Below are positions 54,339-63,974 of a stretch of 64,000 bases of DNA, piece by piece. Source of the DNA: Escherichia coli. GTDB lineage: Bacteria; Pseudomonadota; Gammaproteobacteria; Enterobacterales; Enterobacteriaceae. How positions within the stretch are numbered: the first letter of the stretch is position 1; each line of letters begins with the position of its first letter. Location of the stretch: assembly GCF_030384885.1 (NCBI RefSeq), contig NZ_CP128613.1, one strand, 5' to 3'. The position numbers were made by a program, and so were the translations under genes. The notes below the pieces were generated by a model. The model saw only the letters and a program-made list of their open reading frames with translations, ran no database searches and had not been told where the DNA came from.

Positions 54339-54426
54339 ACGACAATTTGGTGAGGTGTCCGAGTGGCTGAAGGAGCACGCCTGGAAAGTGTGTATACGGC
54401 AACGTATCGGGGGTTCGAATCCCCCC
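54339..54426 (+). tRNA. serX: tRNA-Ser (anticodon GGA)
   Basis: GGTGAGGTGTCCGAGTGGCTGAAGGAGCACGCCTGGAAAGTGTGTATACGGCAACGTATCGGGGGTTCGAATCCCCCCCTCACCGCCA: acceptor stem, long variable arm, GGTTCGAATCC T-loop and encoded CCA. Confidence 0.92.
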
Positions 54427-54527
54427 CTCACCGCCATCTTTAAAGAAGAGCTCGTACGAAAGTACGGGCTTTTTTTTCGTATATTGCACACACCGGGGGG
54501 ATGAGAAGCCCCGACAGGGGTTCGACA
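54408..54527 (+). repeat. direct repeat copy 1 (tRNA 3' end + terminator + about 70 bp)
   Basis: AATCCCCCCCTCACCGCCATCTTTAAAGAAGAGCTCGTACGAAAGTACGGGCTTTTTTTTCGTATATTGCACACACCGGGGGGATGAGAAGCCCCGACAGGGGTTCGACAACTGGCGACA. Confidence 0.9.
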
Positions 54528-54588
54528 ACTGGCGACAGCCAGTTGGACAGACCGTGAACGCAGTGAGCGGGCTGCCCGCAGGGCGAGC

Positions 54589-54707
54589 GAAGCGAGTCAA
54601 TCCCCCCCTCACCGCCATCTTTAAAGAAGAGCTCGTACGAAGGTACGGGCTTTTTTTTCGTATATTGCACACACCGGGGGATGAAAAGCCCCGACCGGGG
54701 TTCGACA
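54589..54707 (+). repeat. direct repeat copy 2 (about 96% identical to copy 1, 61-bp spacer between copies)
   Basis: Same sequence as copy 1 with four differences (GAAAGT to GAAGGT, one G fewer in the G-run, GAGAAG to GAAAAG, GACAGG to GACCGG). Confidence 0.9.
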
Positions 54708-54720
54708 ACTGGCGACAAAC

Positions 54721-56088
54721 TCAATCATCATCCTTGCAGTTGATAAGAATTTCTGCCTCTTTTACAACTATCTTATTACGTCCGGTTTCTTTCGCTTCAT
54801 ATAGTGCATTATCAGCCATTCGATAGATTTCATTCGGATTTAACGCACTTCCCTGAGTCACCACAGCGCCAATGCTAATCGTCACTTTTTGCGGTATGGC
54901 GTATTCAGGATTATCGCCTGTCAAACGCTCTACATTTGCCCTTATCCTTTCGGCTAAAACTTTCGCGCTTTCAGTATCGGTCTCCGTCAGCAAGACGCCA
55001 AACTCTTCGCCGCCAACGCGTGCTAAAAGGTCATTTGGTCGTATGCTTTTCCCAATGATGCTCACCACTGTTTTTATCACCTGATCGCCAACCGGATGCC
55101 CCCACGTATCGTTAACTTTTTTAAAGTGATCGATATCCATAATCATGACACAATAAGACGTTTTTTGGGCTGATGCTGATTGAGCCTTCAGTTCATTGAA
55201 AAAATAATTCCTGTTAAATATATTAGTTAATGGATCGCGATGGGCAATGTTCTTTGTTACTCGTAGCGCACTGAAAATATGGCACATAAATATTACCATA
55301 ACGGTTAATTTACTGACTACTTCAATAGTGCGGCTAATATACCAAGTGGACACACTATACCTGCTCATAAATAACAGAGAGATATTATACAGCACGGCAC
55401 AGAAAGCAATCACTGATACTCCATTCCAGATATCACAGCGTAAACCATTAAAGTATAGATTAACCAAAAGCAAGATTAACCACATGAAAATCATTATGGT
55501 AACATATGAGGTTTTCCAGACTACCTGACCATTTTCATTTGTTAACTCGGCAATATGTAAACTGTAGTCATCATAATGACTACTTAGCATGTGAGCAACT
55601 GCCGCCCCCCCAAAAATAAAAAATAGACTTATACACAATGTCATTTTTTTGGAAAAAAAACAGCGTTTCTTATTGTTTTCACTAACTTTATTCACCAGCG
55701 CTAGCAATATTAACATGCACAAACTCATCTGACGAAACAAATAATAAATTGCAATATCATTTTGTACAACGCTGCTTATCAAATGCCCCTCAATAAATTG
55801 CTGAATGATAATGACAGTTTTAACAAAGTAAATCAAACAACTCAGAAACGCTAAACTAAGTATGCAGTTTGAAAATTGGACACGATCATAAATGAAATAC
55901 AATTGCATGAAAATAAATGCAACGGTATCGATAAAAAATAAAGCAATCATAACCATTAGATAGGTTGATCGTGGAACAACCTCCTCAACGGTTGGCTGAT
56001 TAAACCAACTATTTACCAAAACGAATGCAAGCCCAAACAATAAGCTCACCAATACAGTACTACTAATTCCCAAATAGTCTTTTTCCAT
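54721..56088 (-). CDS. dgcT: diguanylate cyclase DgcT (YcdT), membrane MASE-type sensor + GGDEF
   Basis: ORF 54721..56178 (485 aa) with multi-TM N-terminal region and C-terminal GGEEF motif (RVGGEEFGVLL); start placed at internal MEKDYL. Confidence 0.85.
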   Translation of the reverse strand: MEKDYLGISSTVLVSLLFGLAFVLVNSWFNQPTVEEVVPRSTYLMVMIALFFIDTVAFIFMQLYFIYDRVQFSNCILSLAFLSCLIYFVKTVIIIQQFIEGHLISSVVQNDIAIYYLFRQMSLCMLILLALVNKVSENNKKRCFFSKKMTLCISLFFIFGGAAVAHMLSSHYDDYSLHIAELTNENGQVVWKTSYVTIMIFMWLILLLVNLYFNGLRCDIWNGVSVIAFCAVLYNISLLFMSRYSVSTWYISRTIEVVSKLTVMVIFMCHIFSALRVTKNIAHRDPLTNIFNRNYFFNELKAQSASAQKTSYCVMIMDIDHFKKVNDTWGHPVGDQVIKTVVSIIGKSIRPNDLLARVGGEEFGVLLTETDTESAKVLAERIRANVERLTGDNPEYAIPQKVTISIGAVVTQGSALNPNEIYRMADNALYEAKETGRNKIVVKEAEILINCKDDD

Positions 56089-56439
56089 AAAGCTACACCA
56101 ATCTGTAGGTTGTAGATCCCTTTCTGTCACTAATAGATATAAGAACTGTACTGTTGTCAATATAAAAATCCACCACAAACAATACCAATGATGATAGTTG
56201 CAGACCGCAATTATTATTACCTTAGTGCTTTATACATTCTTCGCGACAAGACAGGCTTGCAAATACATATAAATGGTTATAAGGAAATCCTTATAAAACA
56301 TTAATTCATAGATATATTAGGAATAACAATTGAATCCGTGAGTACAGTAACGCTGCATTTCATCAGGACTTTCGAAAAATCCGATATCATGCATCGGAAT
56401 TTACTGATTTAATTATTTTAATCCTAATTTATTTTGAAA

Positions 56440-56676
56440 AAGGCATTGGGATTTATGCCGTATTCCTGAAGTTCCTCATCATTGGAATGGATTTTCGGGC
56501 GAGAAAAGGATTTTATATGGATACTCTACTCATCATTTCTTCTTCTCATCATCAACAATTCACGTCTCTCTTCCGCGTTTAATAACGGATTATGATGTGC
56601 AAAAAAATATCTTTCGTTTCAGTTACCTGTAATTAGATACAGAGAGAGATTTTGGCAATACATGGAGTAATACAGG
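56440..56676 (+). promoter_or_regulatory. pgaA: pgaA long 5' leader (CsrA-regulated in K-12); 5' boundary approximate
   Basis: About 590-bp gap between divergent dgcT and pgaA; several GGA motifs including ACAGGATGT directly over the pgaA start codon. Confidence 0.55.
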
Positions 56677-59100
56677 ATGTATTCAAGTAGCAGAAAAAGG
56701 TGCCCGAAAACCAAATGGGCTTTGAAAATTCTTACTGCCGCATTTTTAGCAGCGAGTCCCGCGGCGAAGAGTGCTGTTAATAATGCCTATGATGCATTGA
56801 TTATCGAAGCTCGCAAGGGAAATACTCAGCCAGCTTTGTTATGGTTTGCACAAAAATCAGCACTCAGTAATAACCAAATTGCTGACTGGTTACAGATTGC
56901 CTTATGGGCCGGGCAAGATAAACAGGTTATTACCGTTTACAACCGCTACCGTCATCAGCAATTACCAGCGCGTGGTTATGCAGCTGTCGCCGTCGCTTAT
57001 CGTAACCTGCAACAATGGCAAAACTCGCTTACACTGTGGCAAAAGGCACTCTCTCTGGAGTCGCAAAATAAGGATTATCAACGGGGACAAATTTTAACCC
57101 TGGCAGATGCGGGTCACTATGATTCTGCGCTGGTTAAACTTAAGCAGCTTAACTCTGGAGCACCGGACAAAGCTAATTTACTCGCAGAAGCCTATATCTA
57201 TAAACTGGCGGGGCGGCATGAGGATGAATTACGGGCGATGACAGGGTCATTACCTGAAAATGCCTTAACGCAACAATATCCCACAGAATACGTGCAGGCA
57301 TTACGGAATAATCAACTTGCTGCCGCGATTGACGATGCCAATTTAACGCCAGATATTTGCGCTGATATTCATGCCGAACTGGTCAGACTGTCGTTTATGC
57401 CTACGCGCAGTGAAAGTGAACGTTATGCCATTGCCGATCGCGCCCTCGCCCAATACGCTGCATTAGAAATTCTGTGGCATGATAACCCTGACCGCACTGC
57501 CCAGTACCAGCGTATTCAGGTTGATCATCTTGGCGCGTTATTAACTCGCGATCGTTATAAAGACGTTATTTCTCACTATCAGCGTTTAAAAAAGACGGGG
57601 CAAATTATTCCGCCCTGGGCGCAATATTGGGTTGCGTCGGCTTATCTCAAAGAACATCAGCCAAAAAAAGCACAGTCAATAATGACAGAGCTCTTTTATC
57701 ACAAGGAGACCATTGCCCCGGATTTATCCGATGAAGAACTTGCGGATCTCTTTTACAGCCACCTGGAGAGTGAAAATTATCCCGGCGCGCTAACTGTCAC
57801 CCAACATACCATTAATACTTCGCCGCCTTTCCTTCGGTTAATGGGCACGCCTACGAGCATCCCGAATGATACCTGGTTACAGGGGCATTCGTTTCTCTCA
57901 ACCGTAGCAAAATATAGTAATGATCTTCCTCAGGCTGAAATGACAGCCAGAGAGCTTGCTTATAACGCACCAGGAAATCAGGGACTGCGCATTGATTACG
58001 CGAGTGTGTTACAAGCCCGCGGTTGGCCTCGTGCGGCAGAAAATGAATTAAAAAAAGCAGAAGTGATCGAGCCACGTAATATTAATCTGGAGGTTGAACA
58101 AGCCTGGACAGCATTAACGTTACAAGAATGGCAGCAGACAGCGGTCTTAACGCACGATATTGTCGAACGTGAACCGCAAGATCCCGGCGTTGTACGTTTA
58201 AAACGTGCGGTTGATGTACATAATCTTGCAGAGCTTCGTATCGCTGGTTCAACAGGAATTGATGCCGAAGGTCCGGATAGTGGCAAACATGATGTCGACT
58301 TAACCACCATCGTTTATTCACCACCGCTGAATGATAACTGGCGCGGTTTTGCTGGATTCGGTTATGCCGATGGACAATTTAGCGAAGGAAAAGGGATTAT
58401 TCGCGACTGGCTTGCGGGTGTTGAGTGGCGGTCACGTAATATCTGGCTTGAGGCGGAGTACACCGAACGCTTTTTCAATCATGAGCATAAACCCGGCGCG
58501 CGCCTGTCTGGCTGGTATGATTTTAATGATAACTGGCGTATTGGTTCGCAACTGGAACGCCTCTCTCACCGCGTTCCATTACGGGCAATGAAAAATGGTG
58601 TTACAGGCAACAGTGCACAGGCTTATGTTCGCTGGTATCAAAATGAGCGGCGTAAGTACGGTGTCTCTTGGGCTTTCACTGATTTTTCTGACAGTAATCA
58701 GCGTCATGAAGTCTCACTTGAGGGTCAGGAACGCATCTGGTCTTCACCATATTTGATTGTCGATATCCTCCCCAATCTGTATTACGAACAAAATACAGAA
58801 CACGACACCCCATACTACAACCCTATAAAAATGTTCGATATTGTTCCGGCATTTGAGGCAAGTCATTTGTTATGGCGAAGCTATGAAAATAGCTGGGAGC
58901 AAATCTTCAGCGCAGGTGTTGGTGCCTCCTGGCAAAAACATTATGGCACGGATGTCGTCACCCAACTCGGCTACGGGCAACGCATTAGCTGGAATGACGT
59001 GATTGATGCTGGCGCAACGCTACGCTGGGAAAAACGTCCTTATGACGGTGACAGAGAACACAACTTATACGTTGAATTCGATATGACATTCAGATTTTAA
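56677..59100 (+). CDS. pgaA: poly-beta-1,6-N-acetylglucosamine export porin PgaA
   Basis: 807-aa ORF with signal peptide, TPR-like N-terminal half and beta-barrel C-terminus. Confidence 0.95.
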   Translation: MYSSSRKRCPKTKWALKILTAAFLAASPAAKSAVNNAYDALIIEARKGNTQPALLWFAQKSALSNNQIADWLQIALWAGQDKQVITVYNRYRHQQLPARGYAAVAVAYRNLQQWQNSLTLWQKALSLESQNKDYQRGQILTLADAGHYDSALVKLKQLNSGAPDKANLLAEAYIYKLAGRHEDELRAMTGSLPENALTQQYPTEYVQALRNNQLAAAIDDANLTPDICADIHAELVRLSFMPTRSESERYAIADRALAQYAALEILWHDNPDRTAQYQRIQVDHLGALLTRDRYKDVISHYQRLKKTGQIIPPWAQYWVASAYLKEHQPKKAQSIMTELFYHKETIAPDLSDEELADLFYSHLESENYPGALTVTQHTINTSPPFLRLMGTPTSIPNDTWLQGHSFLSTVAKYSNDLPQAEMTARELAYNAPGNQGLRIDYASVLQARGWPRAAENELKKAEVIEPRNINLEVEQAWTALTLQEWQQTAVLTHDIVEREPQDPGVVRLKRAVDVHNLAELRIAGSTGIDAEGPDSGKHDVDLTTIVYSPPLNDNWRGFAGFGYADGQFSEGKGIIRDWLAGVEWRSRNIWLEAEYTERFFNHEHKPGARLSGWYDFNDNWRIGSQLERLSHRVPLRAMKNGVTGNSAQAYVRWYQNERRKYGVSWAFTDFSDSNQRHEVSLEGQERIWSSPYLIVDILPNLYYEQNTEHDTPYYNPIKMFDIVPAFEASHLLWRSYENSWEQIFSAGVGASWQKHYGTDVVTQLGYGQRISWNDVIDAGATLRWEKRPYDGDREHNLYVEFDMTFRF

Positions 59101-59108
59101 GGATAAAT

Positions 59109-61127
59109 ATGTTACGTAATGGAAATAAATATCTCCTGATGCTGGTGAGTATAATTATGCTCACTGCGTGCATTAGCCAGTCAAGAACATCATTTATACC
59201 GCCACAGGATCGCGAATCTTTACTCGCCGAGCAACCGTGGCCGCATAATGGTTTTGTGGCGATTTCATGGCATAACGTTGAAGACGAAGCTGCCGACCAG
59301 CGTTTTATGTCAGTGCGGACATCAGCACTGCGTGAACAATTTGCCTGGCTGCGCGAGAACGGTTATCAACCGGTCAGTATTGCTCAAATTCGTGAAGCAC
59401 ATCGAGGAGGAAAACCGCTACCGGAAAAAGCAGTAGTGCTGACTTTTGATGACGGCTACCAGAGTTTTTATACCCGCGTCTTCCCAATTCTTCAGGCCTT
59501 CCAGTGGCCTGCTGTATGGGCCCCCGTCGGCAGTTGGGTCGATACGCCAGCGGATGAACAAGTAAAATTTGGCGATGAGATGGTCGATCGAGAATATTTT
59601 GCCACGTGGCAACAAGTGCGAGAAGTTGCGCGTTCCCGGCTCGTTGAGGTCGCTTCTCATACATGGAATTCTCACTACGGTATTCAGGCTAATGCCACCG
59701 GCAGCTTATTGCCTGTATATGTAAATCGTGCATATTTTACTGACCACGCACGGTATGAAACCGCAGCAGAATACCGGGAAAGAATTCGTCTGGATGCTGT
59801 AAAAATGACGGAATACCTGCGTACAAAGGCTAAGGTAAATCCACACGTTTTTGTTTGGCCTTATGGTGAAGCGAATGGCATAGCGATAGAGGAATTAAAA
59901 AAACTCGGTTATGACATGTTCTTCACCCTTGAATCAGGTTTGGCAAATGCGTCACAATTGGATTCCATTCCGCGAGTATTAATCGCCAATAATCCCTCAT
60001 TAAAAGAGTTTGCCCAGCAAATTATTACCGTACAGGAAAAATCATCACAACGGGTAATGCATATCGATCTTGATTACGTTTATGACGAAAACCGCCAGCA
60101 AATGGATCGCAATATTGATGTGCTAATTCAGCGGGTGAAAGATATGCAAATATCAACCGTGTATTTGCAGGCATTTGCTGATCCCGATGGTGATGGGCTG
60201 GTCAAAGAGGTCTGGTTTCCAAATCGTTTGCTACCAATGAAAGCAGATATTTTTAGTCGGGTTGCCTGGCAATTACGTACCCGCTCAGGTGTAAACATCT
60301 ATGCGTGGATGCCGGTATTAAGCTGGGATTTAGATCCCACATTAACGCGAGTAAAATATTTACCAACAGGGGAGAAAAAAGCACAAATTCATCCTGAACA
60401 ATATCGCCGTCTATCTCCTTTTGATGACAGGGTCAGAGCACAAGTTGGCATGTTATATGAAGATCTTGCCGGACATGCTGCTTTTGATGGCATATTGTTC
60501 CACGATGATGCTTTGCTTTCAGATTATGAAGATGCCAGTGCACCGGCTATCACGGCTTATCAGCAAGCAGGCTTTAGCGGGAGTCTGAGCGAAATTCGAC
60601 AAAACCCGGAGCAATTTAAACAGTGGACCCGCTTTAAAAGTCGTGCGTTAACTGACTTCACTTTAGAACTTAGTGCGCGCGTAAAAGCCATTCGCGGTCC
60701 ACATGTTAAAACTGCACGAAATATTTTTGCACTTCCGGTAATACAACCTGAAAGTGAAGCCTGGTTTGCACAGAATTATGCTGATTTCCTAAAAAGCTAT
60801 GACTGGACCGCTATTATGGCTATGCCTTATATGGAAGGTGTCGCAGAAAAATCGGCTGACCAATGGTTAATACAATTGACCAATCAAATTAAAAACATCC
60901 CTCAGGCTAAAGACAAATCTATTTTAGAATTACAGGCACAAAACTGGCAGAAAAATGGTCAGCATCAGGCTATTTCTTCGCAACAACTCGCTCACTGGAT
61001 GAGCCTATTACAACTGAATGGAATGAAAAACTATGGTTATTATCCCGACAATTTTCTGCATAACCAACCTGAAATAGACGTTATTCGTCCTGAGTTTTCA
61101 ACAGCCTGGTATCCGAAAAATGATTAA
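59109..61127 (+). CDS. pgaB: PGA N-deacetylase lipoprotein PgaB
   Basis: 672-aa ORF with lipobox LTAC and polysaccharide deacetylase motif TFDDGY. Confidence 0.95.
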
Positions 61128-62445
61128 TCGCATCGTATCGTTTTTTATATTATGTCTGGTGTTATGCATACCCCTATGCGTAGCGTACTTTCACTCTGGT
61201 GAACTGATGATGAGGTTCGTTTTCTTCTGGCCGTTTTTTATGTCCATTATGTGGATTGTTGGCGGCGTCTATTTCTGGGTCTATCGTGAACGCCACTGGC
61301 CGTGGGGAGAAAACGCACCAGCTCCCCAGTTGAAAGATAATCCGTCTATCTCCATTATCATTCCCTGTTTTAATGAGGAGAAAAACGTTGAGGAAACCAT
61401 ACACGCCGCTTTAGCACAGCGTTATGAGAACATTGAAGTTATTGCCGTAAATGACGGTTCAACAGACAAAACCCGTGCCATCCTGGATCGCATGGCTGCA
61501 CAAATTCCCCACCTGCGGGTCATTCATCTGGCGCAAAACCAGGGGAAAGCCATTGCGCTTAAAACCGGAGCTGCCGCGGCGAAAAGTGAATATCTGGTGT
61601 GCATTGATGGCGATGCGTTATTAGACCGCGATGCGGCGGCATATATTGTGGAACCGATGTTGTACAACCCGCGTGTGGGTGCCGTAACCGGTAATCCTCG
61701 TATTCGAACACGTTCTACCCTGGTGGGTAAAATTCAGGTTGGCGAGTATTCCTCAATTATTGGTTTGATCAAGCGAACCCAGCGTATCTATGGAAACGTA
61801 TTTACCGTTTCTGGTGTTATTGCCGCATTTCGTCGCAGCGCCCTGGCAGAAGTGGGTTACTGGAGTGACGATATGATCACCGAAGATATTGATATTAGCT
61901 GGAAGCTGCAGTTGAATCAGTGGACGATTTTTTACGAGCCACGGGCGCTGTGCTGGATATTAATGCCTGAAACGTTAAAAGGGCTGTGGAAACAGCGCCT
62001 GCGCTGGGCTCAGGGCGGTGCAGAAGTATTCCTCAAAAATATGACAAGGCTATGGCGCAAAGAAAACTTTCGAATGTGGCCACTGTTTTTTGAATACTGT
62101 CTGACGACAATATGGGCCTTTACCTGCCTGGTCGGTTTCATTATTTACGCAGTCCAACTTGCAGGTGTACCGTTAAATATTGAATTGACACATATCGCTG
62201 CGACACATACTGCCGGAATATTACTGTGTACGTTATGTTTACTGCAATTTATTGTCAGCCTGATGATCGAGAATCGCTATGAGCATAATCTGACTTCATC
62301 GCTTTTCTGGATTATTTGGTTCCCGGTTATTTTCTGGATGCTGAGCCTGGCAACGACATTGGTATCATTTACACGAGTCATGTTGATGCCTAAAAAGCAA
62401 CGCGCCCGTTGGGTAAGTCCCGATCGAGGGATTCTGAGAGGTTAA
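61120..62445 (+). CDS. pgaC: PGA synthase glycosyltransferase PgaC (GT2)
   Basis: 441-aa ORF with GT2 motifs (DGSTD, QRLRW); overlaps pgaB 3' end by 8 nt. Confidence 0.95.
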
Positions 62446-62446
62446 T

Positions 62447-62860
62447 ATGAACAATTTAATTATTACGACCCGACAATCGCCAGTACGTTTAATGGTTGAT
62501 TATGTTGCCACAACCATCTTATGGACATTATTTGCTTTGTTCATATTCTTATTCACCATGGATCTGCTGACGGGTTATTACTGGCAAAGTGAGGCCAGAA
62601 GCCGACTTCAGTTCTATTTTTTGCTGGCAGTGGCGAATGCCGTCGTGTTAATTGTCTGGGCGCTGTACAATAAGCTGCGTTTTCAAAAACAGCAGCATCA
62701 TGCAGCCTACCAATATACGCCGCAAGAATATGCAGAGAGCTTAGCAATACCTGATGAGCTCTATCAGCAACTACAAAAAAGCCACAGGATGAGCGTACAC
62801 TTCACCAGCCAAGGGCAAATAAAAATGGTTGTTTCAGAAAAAGCGCTAGTCCGGGCATAA
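62447..62860 (+). CDS. pgaD: PGA synthase auxiliary protein PgaD
   Basis: 137-aa two-TM ORF starting 2 nt after the pgaC stop. Confidence 0.9.
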
Positions 62861-62909: not shown

Positions 62910-63974
62910 TTAACTGTATGCATGTAGCGTACGTTGGCAAAGTGCCGAACGTACGCAATCCTCTTTACCGAATCGGACGATCCCGACCATTTCATCCTCT
63001 TCGAAACGTTCCAGCGCGTCACTTAATCCGGAGCGCACGCCGCGAGGCAAATCGCATTGCGTGATATCACCGTTGACGATAACCGTCACGTTCTCCCCGA
63101 GGCGGGTTAAAAACATTTTCATTTGCGCGGCAGTCACATTCTGCGCCTCGTCAAGAATGACGACTGCATTTTCAAAGGTACGTCCACGCATATAGGCGAA
63201 CGGCGCAATTTCCACCTTCCCTATTTCCGGTCGCAGGCAGTACTGCATAAAGGAAGCCCCTAAGCGACGGACCAGCACGTCGTAGACCGGGCGAAAATAG
63301 GGAGCAAACTTTTCTGCGATATCACCAGGTAAGAAACCTAGATCTTCATCGGCTTGCAGAACTGGACGGGTGACAATAATCCTGTCGACATCCTTATGTA
63401 TCAGGGCCTCTGCCGCTTTTGCGGCACTGATCCAGGTTTTTCCGCACCCGGCTTCGCCGGTGGCGAATATCAGCTGCTTACTCTCAATAGCCTTCAGATA
63501 GTGCAATTGCGCTTCATTTCGCGCGAGGATGGGCGAGGTATCGCGACTGTCGCGGGCCATACCAATGGCTTCTACGCCGCTCATCTGCACAAGCGAGGTG
63601 ACCGATTCTTCTTCACGCTGCTTATGGCTGCGCGAATCCCGTCTCAGCACACGTTTTGCCTCGCGACGAGCTTTGATCACTGCTTTTTGTCTTCCCATGG
63701 AGAGCACCTTGAGTTGTTTGTATTCATCACACGCGCCGTTGGCAGCGCGATTATGCGCACGAACATCAGAGGGTTGGCTTCCTTGTAAGCCATAGTTTGC
63801 TGTTGGATAAAATGCCGAAAAACGGCTACGCACACCGTTTGCGGCGTCGGTAACACATGAAAAGTAAGGAAGAATTTGAAAATGCAAAGTGACGAGATGA
63901 CTACCGGAGGAGAAATCTCCGCGAGTGGTGGAGCGTTGCTTAACAAAACATTGTCCAGTACAGGACGTTACCAT
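62910..63974 (-). CDS. phoH: PhoH, phosphate-starvation-inducible ATPase
   Basis: 354-aa ORF with Walker A GEAGCGKT and PhoH-family C-terminal domain; convergent with pgaD. Confidence 0.9.
   Translation of the reverse strand: MVTSCTGQCFVKQRSTTRGDFSSGSHLVTLHFQILPYFSCVTDAANGVRSRFSAFYPTANYGLQGSQPSDVRAHNRAANGACDEYKQLKVLSMGRQKAVIKARREAKRVLRRDSRSHKQREEESVTSLVQMSGVEAIGMARDSRDTSPILARNEAQLHYLKAIESKQLIFATGEAGCGKTWISAAKAAEALIHKDVDRIIVTRPVLQADEDLGFLPGDIAEKFAPYFRPVYDVLVRRLGASFMQYCLRPEIGKVEIAPFAYMRGRTFENAVVILDEAQNVTAAQMKMFLTRLGENVTVIVNGDITQCDLPRGVRSGLSDALERFEEDEMVGIVRFGKEDCVRSALCQRTLHAYS

Follow-up and report, generated by a model that had tools for sequence, protein, structure and literature searches.

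The region described here lies in a window of 64,000 nt (the whole stretch of Escherichia coli DNA that was analysed), in which a diguanylate cyclase gene and the pgaABCD operon are transcribed away from a shared intergenic spacer. The genes and the spacer are arranged as follows.

54721..56088, minus strand: dgcT (ycdT), diguanylate cyclase of 455 aa with MASE4 and GGDEF domains, identified by domain matches and by the PGAP annotation of an identical genome
56089..56676, no strand assigned: dgcT-pgaA divergent intergenic region; the K-12 orthologue is 586 bp long and 93.7% identical
56677..59100, plus strand: pgaA, 807 aa, first gene of pgaABCD (NCBIfam PgaA equivalog, 1439.6 bits, residues 1-807)
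59109-61127: pgaB
61120-62445: pgaC
62447-62860: pgaD

PgaA, PgaB, PgaC and PgaD each have an NCBIfam equivalog match. The ATG of dgcT is the complement of positions 56086-56088, and GGEEF and RxxD motifs are visible in its translation; a reading made earlier from the sequence alone had called this divergent neighbour a diguanylate cyclase, and the 455-aa MASE4 and GGDEF architecture bears it out. The ATG of pgaA occupies 56677-56679 and is conserved in all 12 leaders compared below. Between the two genes lies a spacer of 588 bp with 33.5% G+C, in agreement with the approximately 590 bp of non-coding DNA that the sequence-only reading had placed before pgaA, of which the pgaA leader itself accounts for only 236; the remaining 352 bp is the pgaA promoter and activator region together with the dgcT promoter and leader.

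The spacer is 100% identical to the chromosome of E. coli strain 2013C-4282. Of 5426 complete E. coli genomes, 4235 contain it and 1191 gave no megablast match. Some of these 1191 carry a highly divergent allele, of which LF4-1 is an example, and others may lack the locus. In the identical 2013C-4282 genome, the RefSeq/PGAP annotation begins pgaA at a TTG (56722), 45 nt 3' of the conserved ATG at 56677. The K-12 ATG is used in five other genomes that we inspected, and the TTG start seems to be an inconsistency of annotation.

The pgaA leader of K-12 is among the best-characterised CsrA targets. Six CsrA sites lie in its 234-nt 5' UTR, and through them CsrA represses pgaA translation (Wang et al. 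2005, as cited in PMC4052769) and so switches off synthesis of a biofilm polysaccharide. Figueroa-Bossi et al. 2014 (PMC4052769) described CsrA-induced, Rho-dependent attenuation in this leader: a weak hairpin carries the two 5'-proximal CsrA sites on its left arm (+61..+81), and the Rho utilisation (rut) site begins with its right arm (+82..+107) (PMC4052769). The role of the CsrA site at the pgaA Shine-Dalgarno (SD) sequence is described in PMC4052769 and PMC7652899, and the published mechanism is also covered in PMC12360218. The LysR-type regulator NhaR activates the pgaABCD promoter (Goller et al. 2006, as cited in PMC7652899). The divergent gene ycdT/dgcT encodes a CsrA-repressed diguanylate cyclase (Jonas et al. 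2008, as cited in PMC4066749, PMC6028588 and PMC4287979), with a single CsrA site near its SD (PMC4066749, PMC6028588).

The window retains every sequence element of the K-12 leader, to which its own pgaA leader is orthologous. We are therefore highly confident, from the sequence comparison, that this region corresponds to the already known CsrA-, Rho- and NhaR-controlled pgaA leader, in an intact copy with minor allelic differences. Binding of CsrA, Rho and NhaR in the window strain is expected by analogy with the K-12 experiments. The sequence-only reading, which had proposed multi-site CsrA repression of pgaA translation, was thus right but incomplete: it omitted CsrA-induced Rho termination, the rut site and activation by NhaR (PMC4052769, PMC7652899).

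By analogy with K-12, an activator-dependent promoter would fire at about 56441, with NhaR as the probable activator and a conserved dyad at -61..-43. CsrA bound at AAGGA (+66..+70) and AUGGA (+77..+81) would then melt the weak hairpin (+61..+107), which would otherwise hide a C-rich rut tract; once the hairpin was melted, Rho could act and stop transcription within the leader. Any transcript that ran on past Rho would still be subject to CsrA at the SD (AUGGAG) and over the start codon (ACAGGAUGU), where it would block the 30S subunit. The divergent dgcT mRNA is probably also a CsrA target, such that the cyclase and the c-di-GMP-activated PgaCD synthase would answer to the same regulator.

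Divergence from K-12 is unevenly distributed along the locus. Over the whole spacer (588 versus 586 bp) identity is 93.7%, but it amounts to 88.6% in the dgcT coding sequence (80% at third codon positions) and 89.5% in the dgcT-proximal spacer, against 98.7% in the pgaA promoter (-77..-1, with one SNP), 97.5% in the pgaA leader and 97.6% in the pgaA coding sequence. The step from a dgcT side that is about 11% divergent to a pgaA side that is 97.5–98.7% identical is suggestive of a junction, by haplotype or recombination, near 56358-56385. Relative to K-12, dgcT and the distal spacer of the window belong to a haplotype with roughly 11% divergence; the left arm, rut tract, SD and start sites of the orthologous 5' UTR match. 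Window-like spacers occur in about 700 genomes and K-12-like spacers in about 3500; for the leader taken by itself, identity to the window allele reaches 99% or more in 194 genomes and lies in the 95–99% band, to which K-12 belongs, in 3922. The K-12 DgcT is 452 aa long, compared with 455 aa in the window. The IS3 element, gene fragment and ycdU that lie beyond dgcT in K-12 are missing from the window.

Three features were recognised in the half of the spacer upstream of the leader.

56364..56440, plus strand: pgaA promoter and activator region (-77..-1), 98.7% identical to K-12
56380..56398, no strand assigned: dyad TCCGA-N9-TCGGA at -61..-43, candidate NhaR site, with conserved arms and a variable spacer
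56116..56124, minus strand: GAAAGGGAU, candidate for the single ycdT CsrA site, about 31 nt upstream of the dgcT ATG; ATCCCTTT is invariant

The block from -77 to -14 is an island of conservation even in comparison with the divergent LF4-1 allele. A scan for sigma-70 consensus sequences did not find the pgaA promoter, as expected for one that depends on an activator. Within the island, the positions C.GA-N9-TCG of the dyad are invariant out to Citrobacter, and we infer that the dyad may be the NhaR site; a conserved block with such a dyad fits the reported activation of the pgaABCD promoter by NhaR.

On the dgcT side, ATCCCTTT is invariant in the window, K-12 and LF4-1, and AAAGGGAU, read on the dgcT strand about 31 nt 5' of the ATG, is invariant in the same three divergent alleles. 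GAAAGGGAU could be the reported ycdT CsrA site. A GGA also overlaps the dgcT start codon, as ATGGAA. The window thus resembles K-12 in having a divergent MASE4-GGDEF gene with a conserved AAAGGGAU in its leader, although its dgcT allele is only 88.6% identical. The divergent ycdT-pga arrangement and a suggested link to PGA synthesis have already been published (PMC4287979, and Jonas 2008 as cited there). The coupling of c-di-GMP synthesis to PGA production at one locus, to which the sequence-only reading had also drawn attention, stands as a published suggestion only, and the pairing of the two genes is not universal: in two Citrobacter species, the gene upstream of pgaA is on the same strand and encodes a Tar-like chemoreceptor, and there is no divergent cyclase. 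The chemoreceptor gene lies at 250-1914 of one retrieved Citrobacter locus; in these species the spacer to pgaA is again about 586 bp.

The leader itself contains the following features, with the CsrA sites named after their K-12 counterparts.

56441..56676, plus strand: pgaA 5' UTR, 236 nt, with +1 placed by alignment to the mapped 234-nt leader of K-12
56442..56459, plus strand (+2..+19): 5'-terminal hairpin GGCAU-[UGGGAUUU]-AUGCC, with GGA 56449-56451 in an 8-nt loop
56484..56491, plus strand: GGA pair +44/+49 (UUGGAAUGGA), conserved in Escherichia and absent in Citrobacter
56501..56521, plus strand: left arm of the antiterminator hairpin (+61..+81) with the two 5'-proximal CsrA sites, identical to K-12
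56517..56582, plus strand: 21-codon leader ORF (MDTLLIISSSHHQQFTSLFRV, then a stop), with the SD AAGGA (CsrA site 1) 6 nt upstream of its AUG
56521..56580, plus strand: rut region, C-rich and G-poor by base composition (C 30–35%, G 0–7%)
56522..56547, plus strand: right arm of the antiterminator hairpin, with two SNPs relative to K-12 (+82 C>U and +88 G>A)
56585..56589, plus strand: ACGGA at +145..+149, putative middle CsrA site
56641..56649, plus strand: AGAGAGAGA run, putative non-GGA CsrA site, partly conserved
56662..56667, plus strand: AUGGAG, pgaA SD and CsrA site, identical to K-12
56670..56684, plus strand: AUACAGGAUGUAUUC, CsrA site over the start codon, where a small hairpin AUAC-[AGGAU]-GUAU is possible; UACAGGAUGUAU is invariant

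Transcription probably starts at about 56441, judging from the alignment. The resulting leader of 236 nt is not shorter than the 234 nt of K-12, from which it differs in length by an AA inserted in an A-run and in sequence by five SNPs (+32, +82, +88, +156 and +176). The plus strand of the spacer, taken with the start codon, contains 12 GGAs, eight of them in the leader: +9, +44, +49, +68, +79, +147, +224 (SD) and +235 (start). All eight are kept from K-12, and no SNP hits any of them, nor does the 2-nt insertion. This agrees with the sequence-only reading, which had noted further GGA motifs upstream of one that overlaps the pgaA start codon; the latter lies within ACAGGATGT (56672-56680), with GGA at 56675-56677. 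A GGA across one ATG is common and not unusual by itself.

Four of the six CsrA sites can be placed from PMC4052769. Site 1 is AAGGA (+66..+70, with GGA at 56508-56510) and site 2 is AUGGA (+77..+81, with GGA at 56519-56521); ACAGGAUGU at 56672-56680 and AUGGAG at 56662-56667 are the same as in K-12 and are predicted to be mostly unpaired. The remaining two, the middle mapped sites, may correspond to ACGGA at +145 and to the AGAGA run. AGAGA is given as a secondary CsrA motif in Table 2 of PMC4066749, which cites two references for it, one of them the pgaA footprint paper. The rut tract (+81..+140) has 9–11 YC dimers per 40 nt, and its base composition is that expected of a Rho utilisation site.

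The comparison covered 12 leaders. Six are typical E. coli alleles and two are from Citrobacter (72–73% PgaA identity); the other four belong to a divergent Escherichia-type lineage and come from LF4-1, from a GTDB species representative (79% PgaA identity) and from two metagenome contigs. A scan of a genome collection with PgaA returned four loci, and a pattern scan of metagenomes gave ten matches, eight of them due to chance and two LF4-1-like leaders; the pgaA-like locus of Leclercia was without a comparable leader. One third of the leader columns (33%) are invariant among the 12. The two longest invariant runs are AAAGGAUUU (56505-56513, +65..+73), which contains CsrA site 1, and UACAGGAUGUAU over the start codon.

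Four GGAs are conserved as far as Citrobacter: those in the +9 hairpin loop, in AAAGGAUUU, in the SD and at the start codon. Both Citrobacter leaders keep the 5' GGA hairpin as well, and the pgaA SD retains its GGA as AUGGAG or, in Citrobacter, as CAGGAC. The other sites are more variable. The GGAs at +44 and +49 are absent in Citrobacter; that at +79 is lost in LF4-1-type and Citrobacter leaders, where it becomes GAA, GAG or GAC; and that at +147 reads GGG in LF4-1-type leaders and has no counterpart in Citrobacter. With the AGAGA run only partly conserved, conservation of three candidate CsrA sites (+79, +147 and AGAGA) does not extend beyond typical E. coli. Why the leader has so many CsrA sites is a question that the 2014 paper left open (PMC4052769), and this cross-genus map of kept and lost GGA sites could guide its revisiting. 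The LF4-1 leader also has a 22-nt unit, CCCGTAGTCCTTCCCTTTTGGG, three times in tandem (about 4117-4182 of the retrieved locus), which lengthens it to about 278 nt; the three related leaders have one copy.

Of the eight GGAs in the window leader, three are predicted to be unpaired or in loops, namely +9 (probability of being unpaired 0.94), SD (0.70) and start codon (0.75, in the loop of the small AUAC/GUAU hairpin). Presentation in loops was a check proposed with the sequence-only reading, and neither of the two outcomes that it had named as contrary, no GGA in a predicted loop or a leader much shorter than that of K-12, was observed. The GGAs at +68 and +79 are predicted to be paired (probability of being unpaired 0.02 and 0.25, respectively), as the published model requires, because CsrA must melt the helix that contains them. 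The base of the +61..+107 hairpin is kept, at -6.0 versus -6.4 kcal/mol in K-12, and the first 120 nt fold with -25.4 versus -29.4 kcal/mol. The differences from K-12 lie in the upper part of the hairpin, at the +82 and +88 SNPs, and in an upstream helix, which the +32 SNP (A>U) weakens. Since these three SNPs alter the predicted folds, the quantitative behaviour of the window leader may differ from that of K-12.

The idea of a highly structured leader was rejected, as the stability of the whole leader was no better than that of shuffled sequences (z +0.30). The antiterminator hairpin is itself marginal (z -0.68), and its left-right arm pairing is absent from the minimum free energy folds of the LF4-1-type and Citrobacter leaders. 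Compensatory covariation was found for none of the helices among the 12 leaders. Rfam, at both E-value and gathering thresholds, had no family for the leader; the best score in the region was 20.1 bits, to a miRNA model with a threshold of 72.

What is mildly new here is comparative: the cross-genus conservation of GGAs, the conserved hairpin with GGA in its loop at the 5' end, and the conserved SD and AUG of the leader ORF. As discovery the leader carries little weight, and the functional roles of these three items are candidates only.

The 5' hairpin is the best-defined structure in the leader, with -6.7 kcal/mol, 94% of the ensemble and a z of -2.1, and its loop GGA has the 0.94 probability of being unpaired given above. 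Its stem and loop GGA, in the form GCAU-[NNGGANNU]-AUGC, are kept in 11 of the 12 leaders, Citrobacter included, and the Citrobacter loop, AAGGAAC, matches A(N)GGA better than the E. coli loop does. In strain 439, a single C>U change in the stem converts one pair to G-U, so that the stem still pairs. The hairpin lies upstream of the 5'-proximal pair of sites, which was mapped at +61..+81 (PMC4052769), and it appears not to be among the six mapped CsrA sites. We tentatively consider that it might be functional beyond those six, either as a seventh CsrA site paired with a downstream one across the CsrA dimer or as a stem-loop that contributes to mRNA stability; on balance we lean against this possibility. 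The support for it is conservation only, without compensatory covariation, and UGGGA is listed as a secondary rather than a primary CsrA motif (PMC4066749). The site may also have been examined already in the original footprint paper, and conservation immediately beside +1 could reflect constraints on the promoter or on the initial transcribed sequence.

A second alternative concerns the leader ORF. Its translation could place ribosomes over the rut tract and block Rho, such that CsrA would act by repressing the ORF, as well as or instead of melting the hairpin. Several features are suggestive of such an arrangement. CsrA site 1 is the SD of the ORF and site 2 overlaps its AUG; with AAGGA 6 nt before the AUG, the ORF has a better SD and spacing than pgaA itself, and it spans the C-rich tract. 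All 12 leaders share AAAGGAUUUNAUAUG unchanged, including those of LF4-1 type and of Citrobacter, in which site 2 has no GGA; this argues that the AUG is conserved and not the GGA, and suggests that translation of the leader ORF may help to shield the transcript from Rho. All Escherichia leaders have 21 codons and the same stop, and the two SNPs that distinguish window and K-12 within the ORF are synonymous. Rho attenuators controlled by upstream ORFs are an established class, as in tnaC and speFL (PMC12360218), with which the window shares a short ORF that has a good SD and overlaps a rut tract upstream of a gene.

We nevertheless regard control by ORF translation as distinctly improbable. 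A published mutation of the leader ORF AUG was neutral (PMC4052769), in a fusion that had been moved into Salmonella, and, unlike tnaC and speFL, the ORF shows no sign of a conserved arrest peptide. The peptide is not conserved either: the ORF is 21 aa long in all Escherichia leaders but 20 and 10 aa in the two Citrobacter, the 10-codon version being frameshifted, and two non-synonymous changes occur in E. coli strain SSGNw1. An open frame is also expected by chance from composition in a G-poor tract, which lacks stop codons, and the literature that we searched contained no link between pgaA and an upstream ORF. Two related candidates were rejected. A conserved leader protein is at odds with six non-synonymous versus four to five synonymous changes in the Escherichia lineages, with the Citrobacter frameshift and with the changes in SSGNw1; and an in-frame upstream AUG at 56487, which would give 31 aa, is not conserved.

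Taken jointly, the proposal that two conserved elements lie outside the six-site model, the 5' GGA hairpin as a seventh CsrA site or stability element and a CsrA-repressible leader ORF that shields the transcript from Rho, is in our judgement unlikely, and the known CsrA-, Rho- and NhaR-controlled leader remains the preferred reading.

The statistics of GGA bear on a last alternative. The eight leader GGAs compare with 4.9 ± 1.5 in dinucleotide shuffles (P=0.037) and five A.GGA motifs with 1.4 expected (P=0.0065), while in the window as a whole 1.2% of 245-nt stretches reach eight GGAs and the antisense strand of the leader has no enrichment. This enrichment alone is modest, and it is the orthology to a dissected leader that carries the interpretation. 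That the motifs are a chance product of composition in a leader with no special regulatory role is hardly credible: their number is only about 2 SD above the dinucleotide shuffles, the structure of the full leader is unremarkable and Rfam has no family for it, but the leader is nearly identical to the experimentally dissected one (PMC4052769), its GGA-bearing blocks are its most conserved parts across genera, and the enrichment is strand-specific.

Several observations were made in passing. Among the PLSDB records with a pgaA leader, some "plasmids" of 4.8–4.9 Mb are chromosomes filed as plasmids, and other PLSDB records with pgaA are replicons of 160–1300 kb. On the far side of dgcT, a tRNA lies at 54349-54433 of the window, and an "RtT sRNA" is annotated by PGAP at about 54482-54617 in the identical genome, though it was not reported by the Rfam gathering-threshold scan of the window. 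Downstream of the operon, the Rfam family Ysr251, a Yersinia antisense sRNA family, matches 62915-63108 on the plus strand with 188.7 bits, overlapping the 3' end of a 354-aa minus-strand ORF (62910-63974) that is convergent with pgaD.
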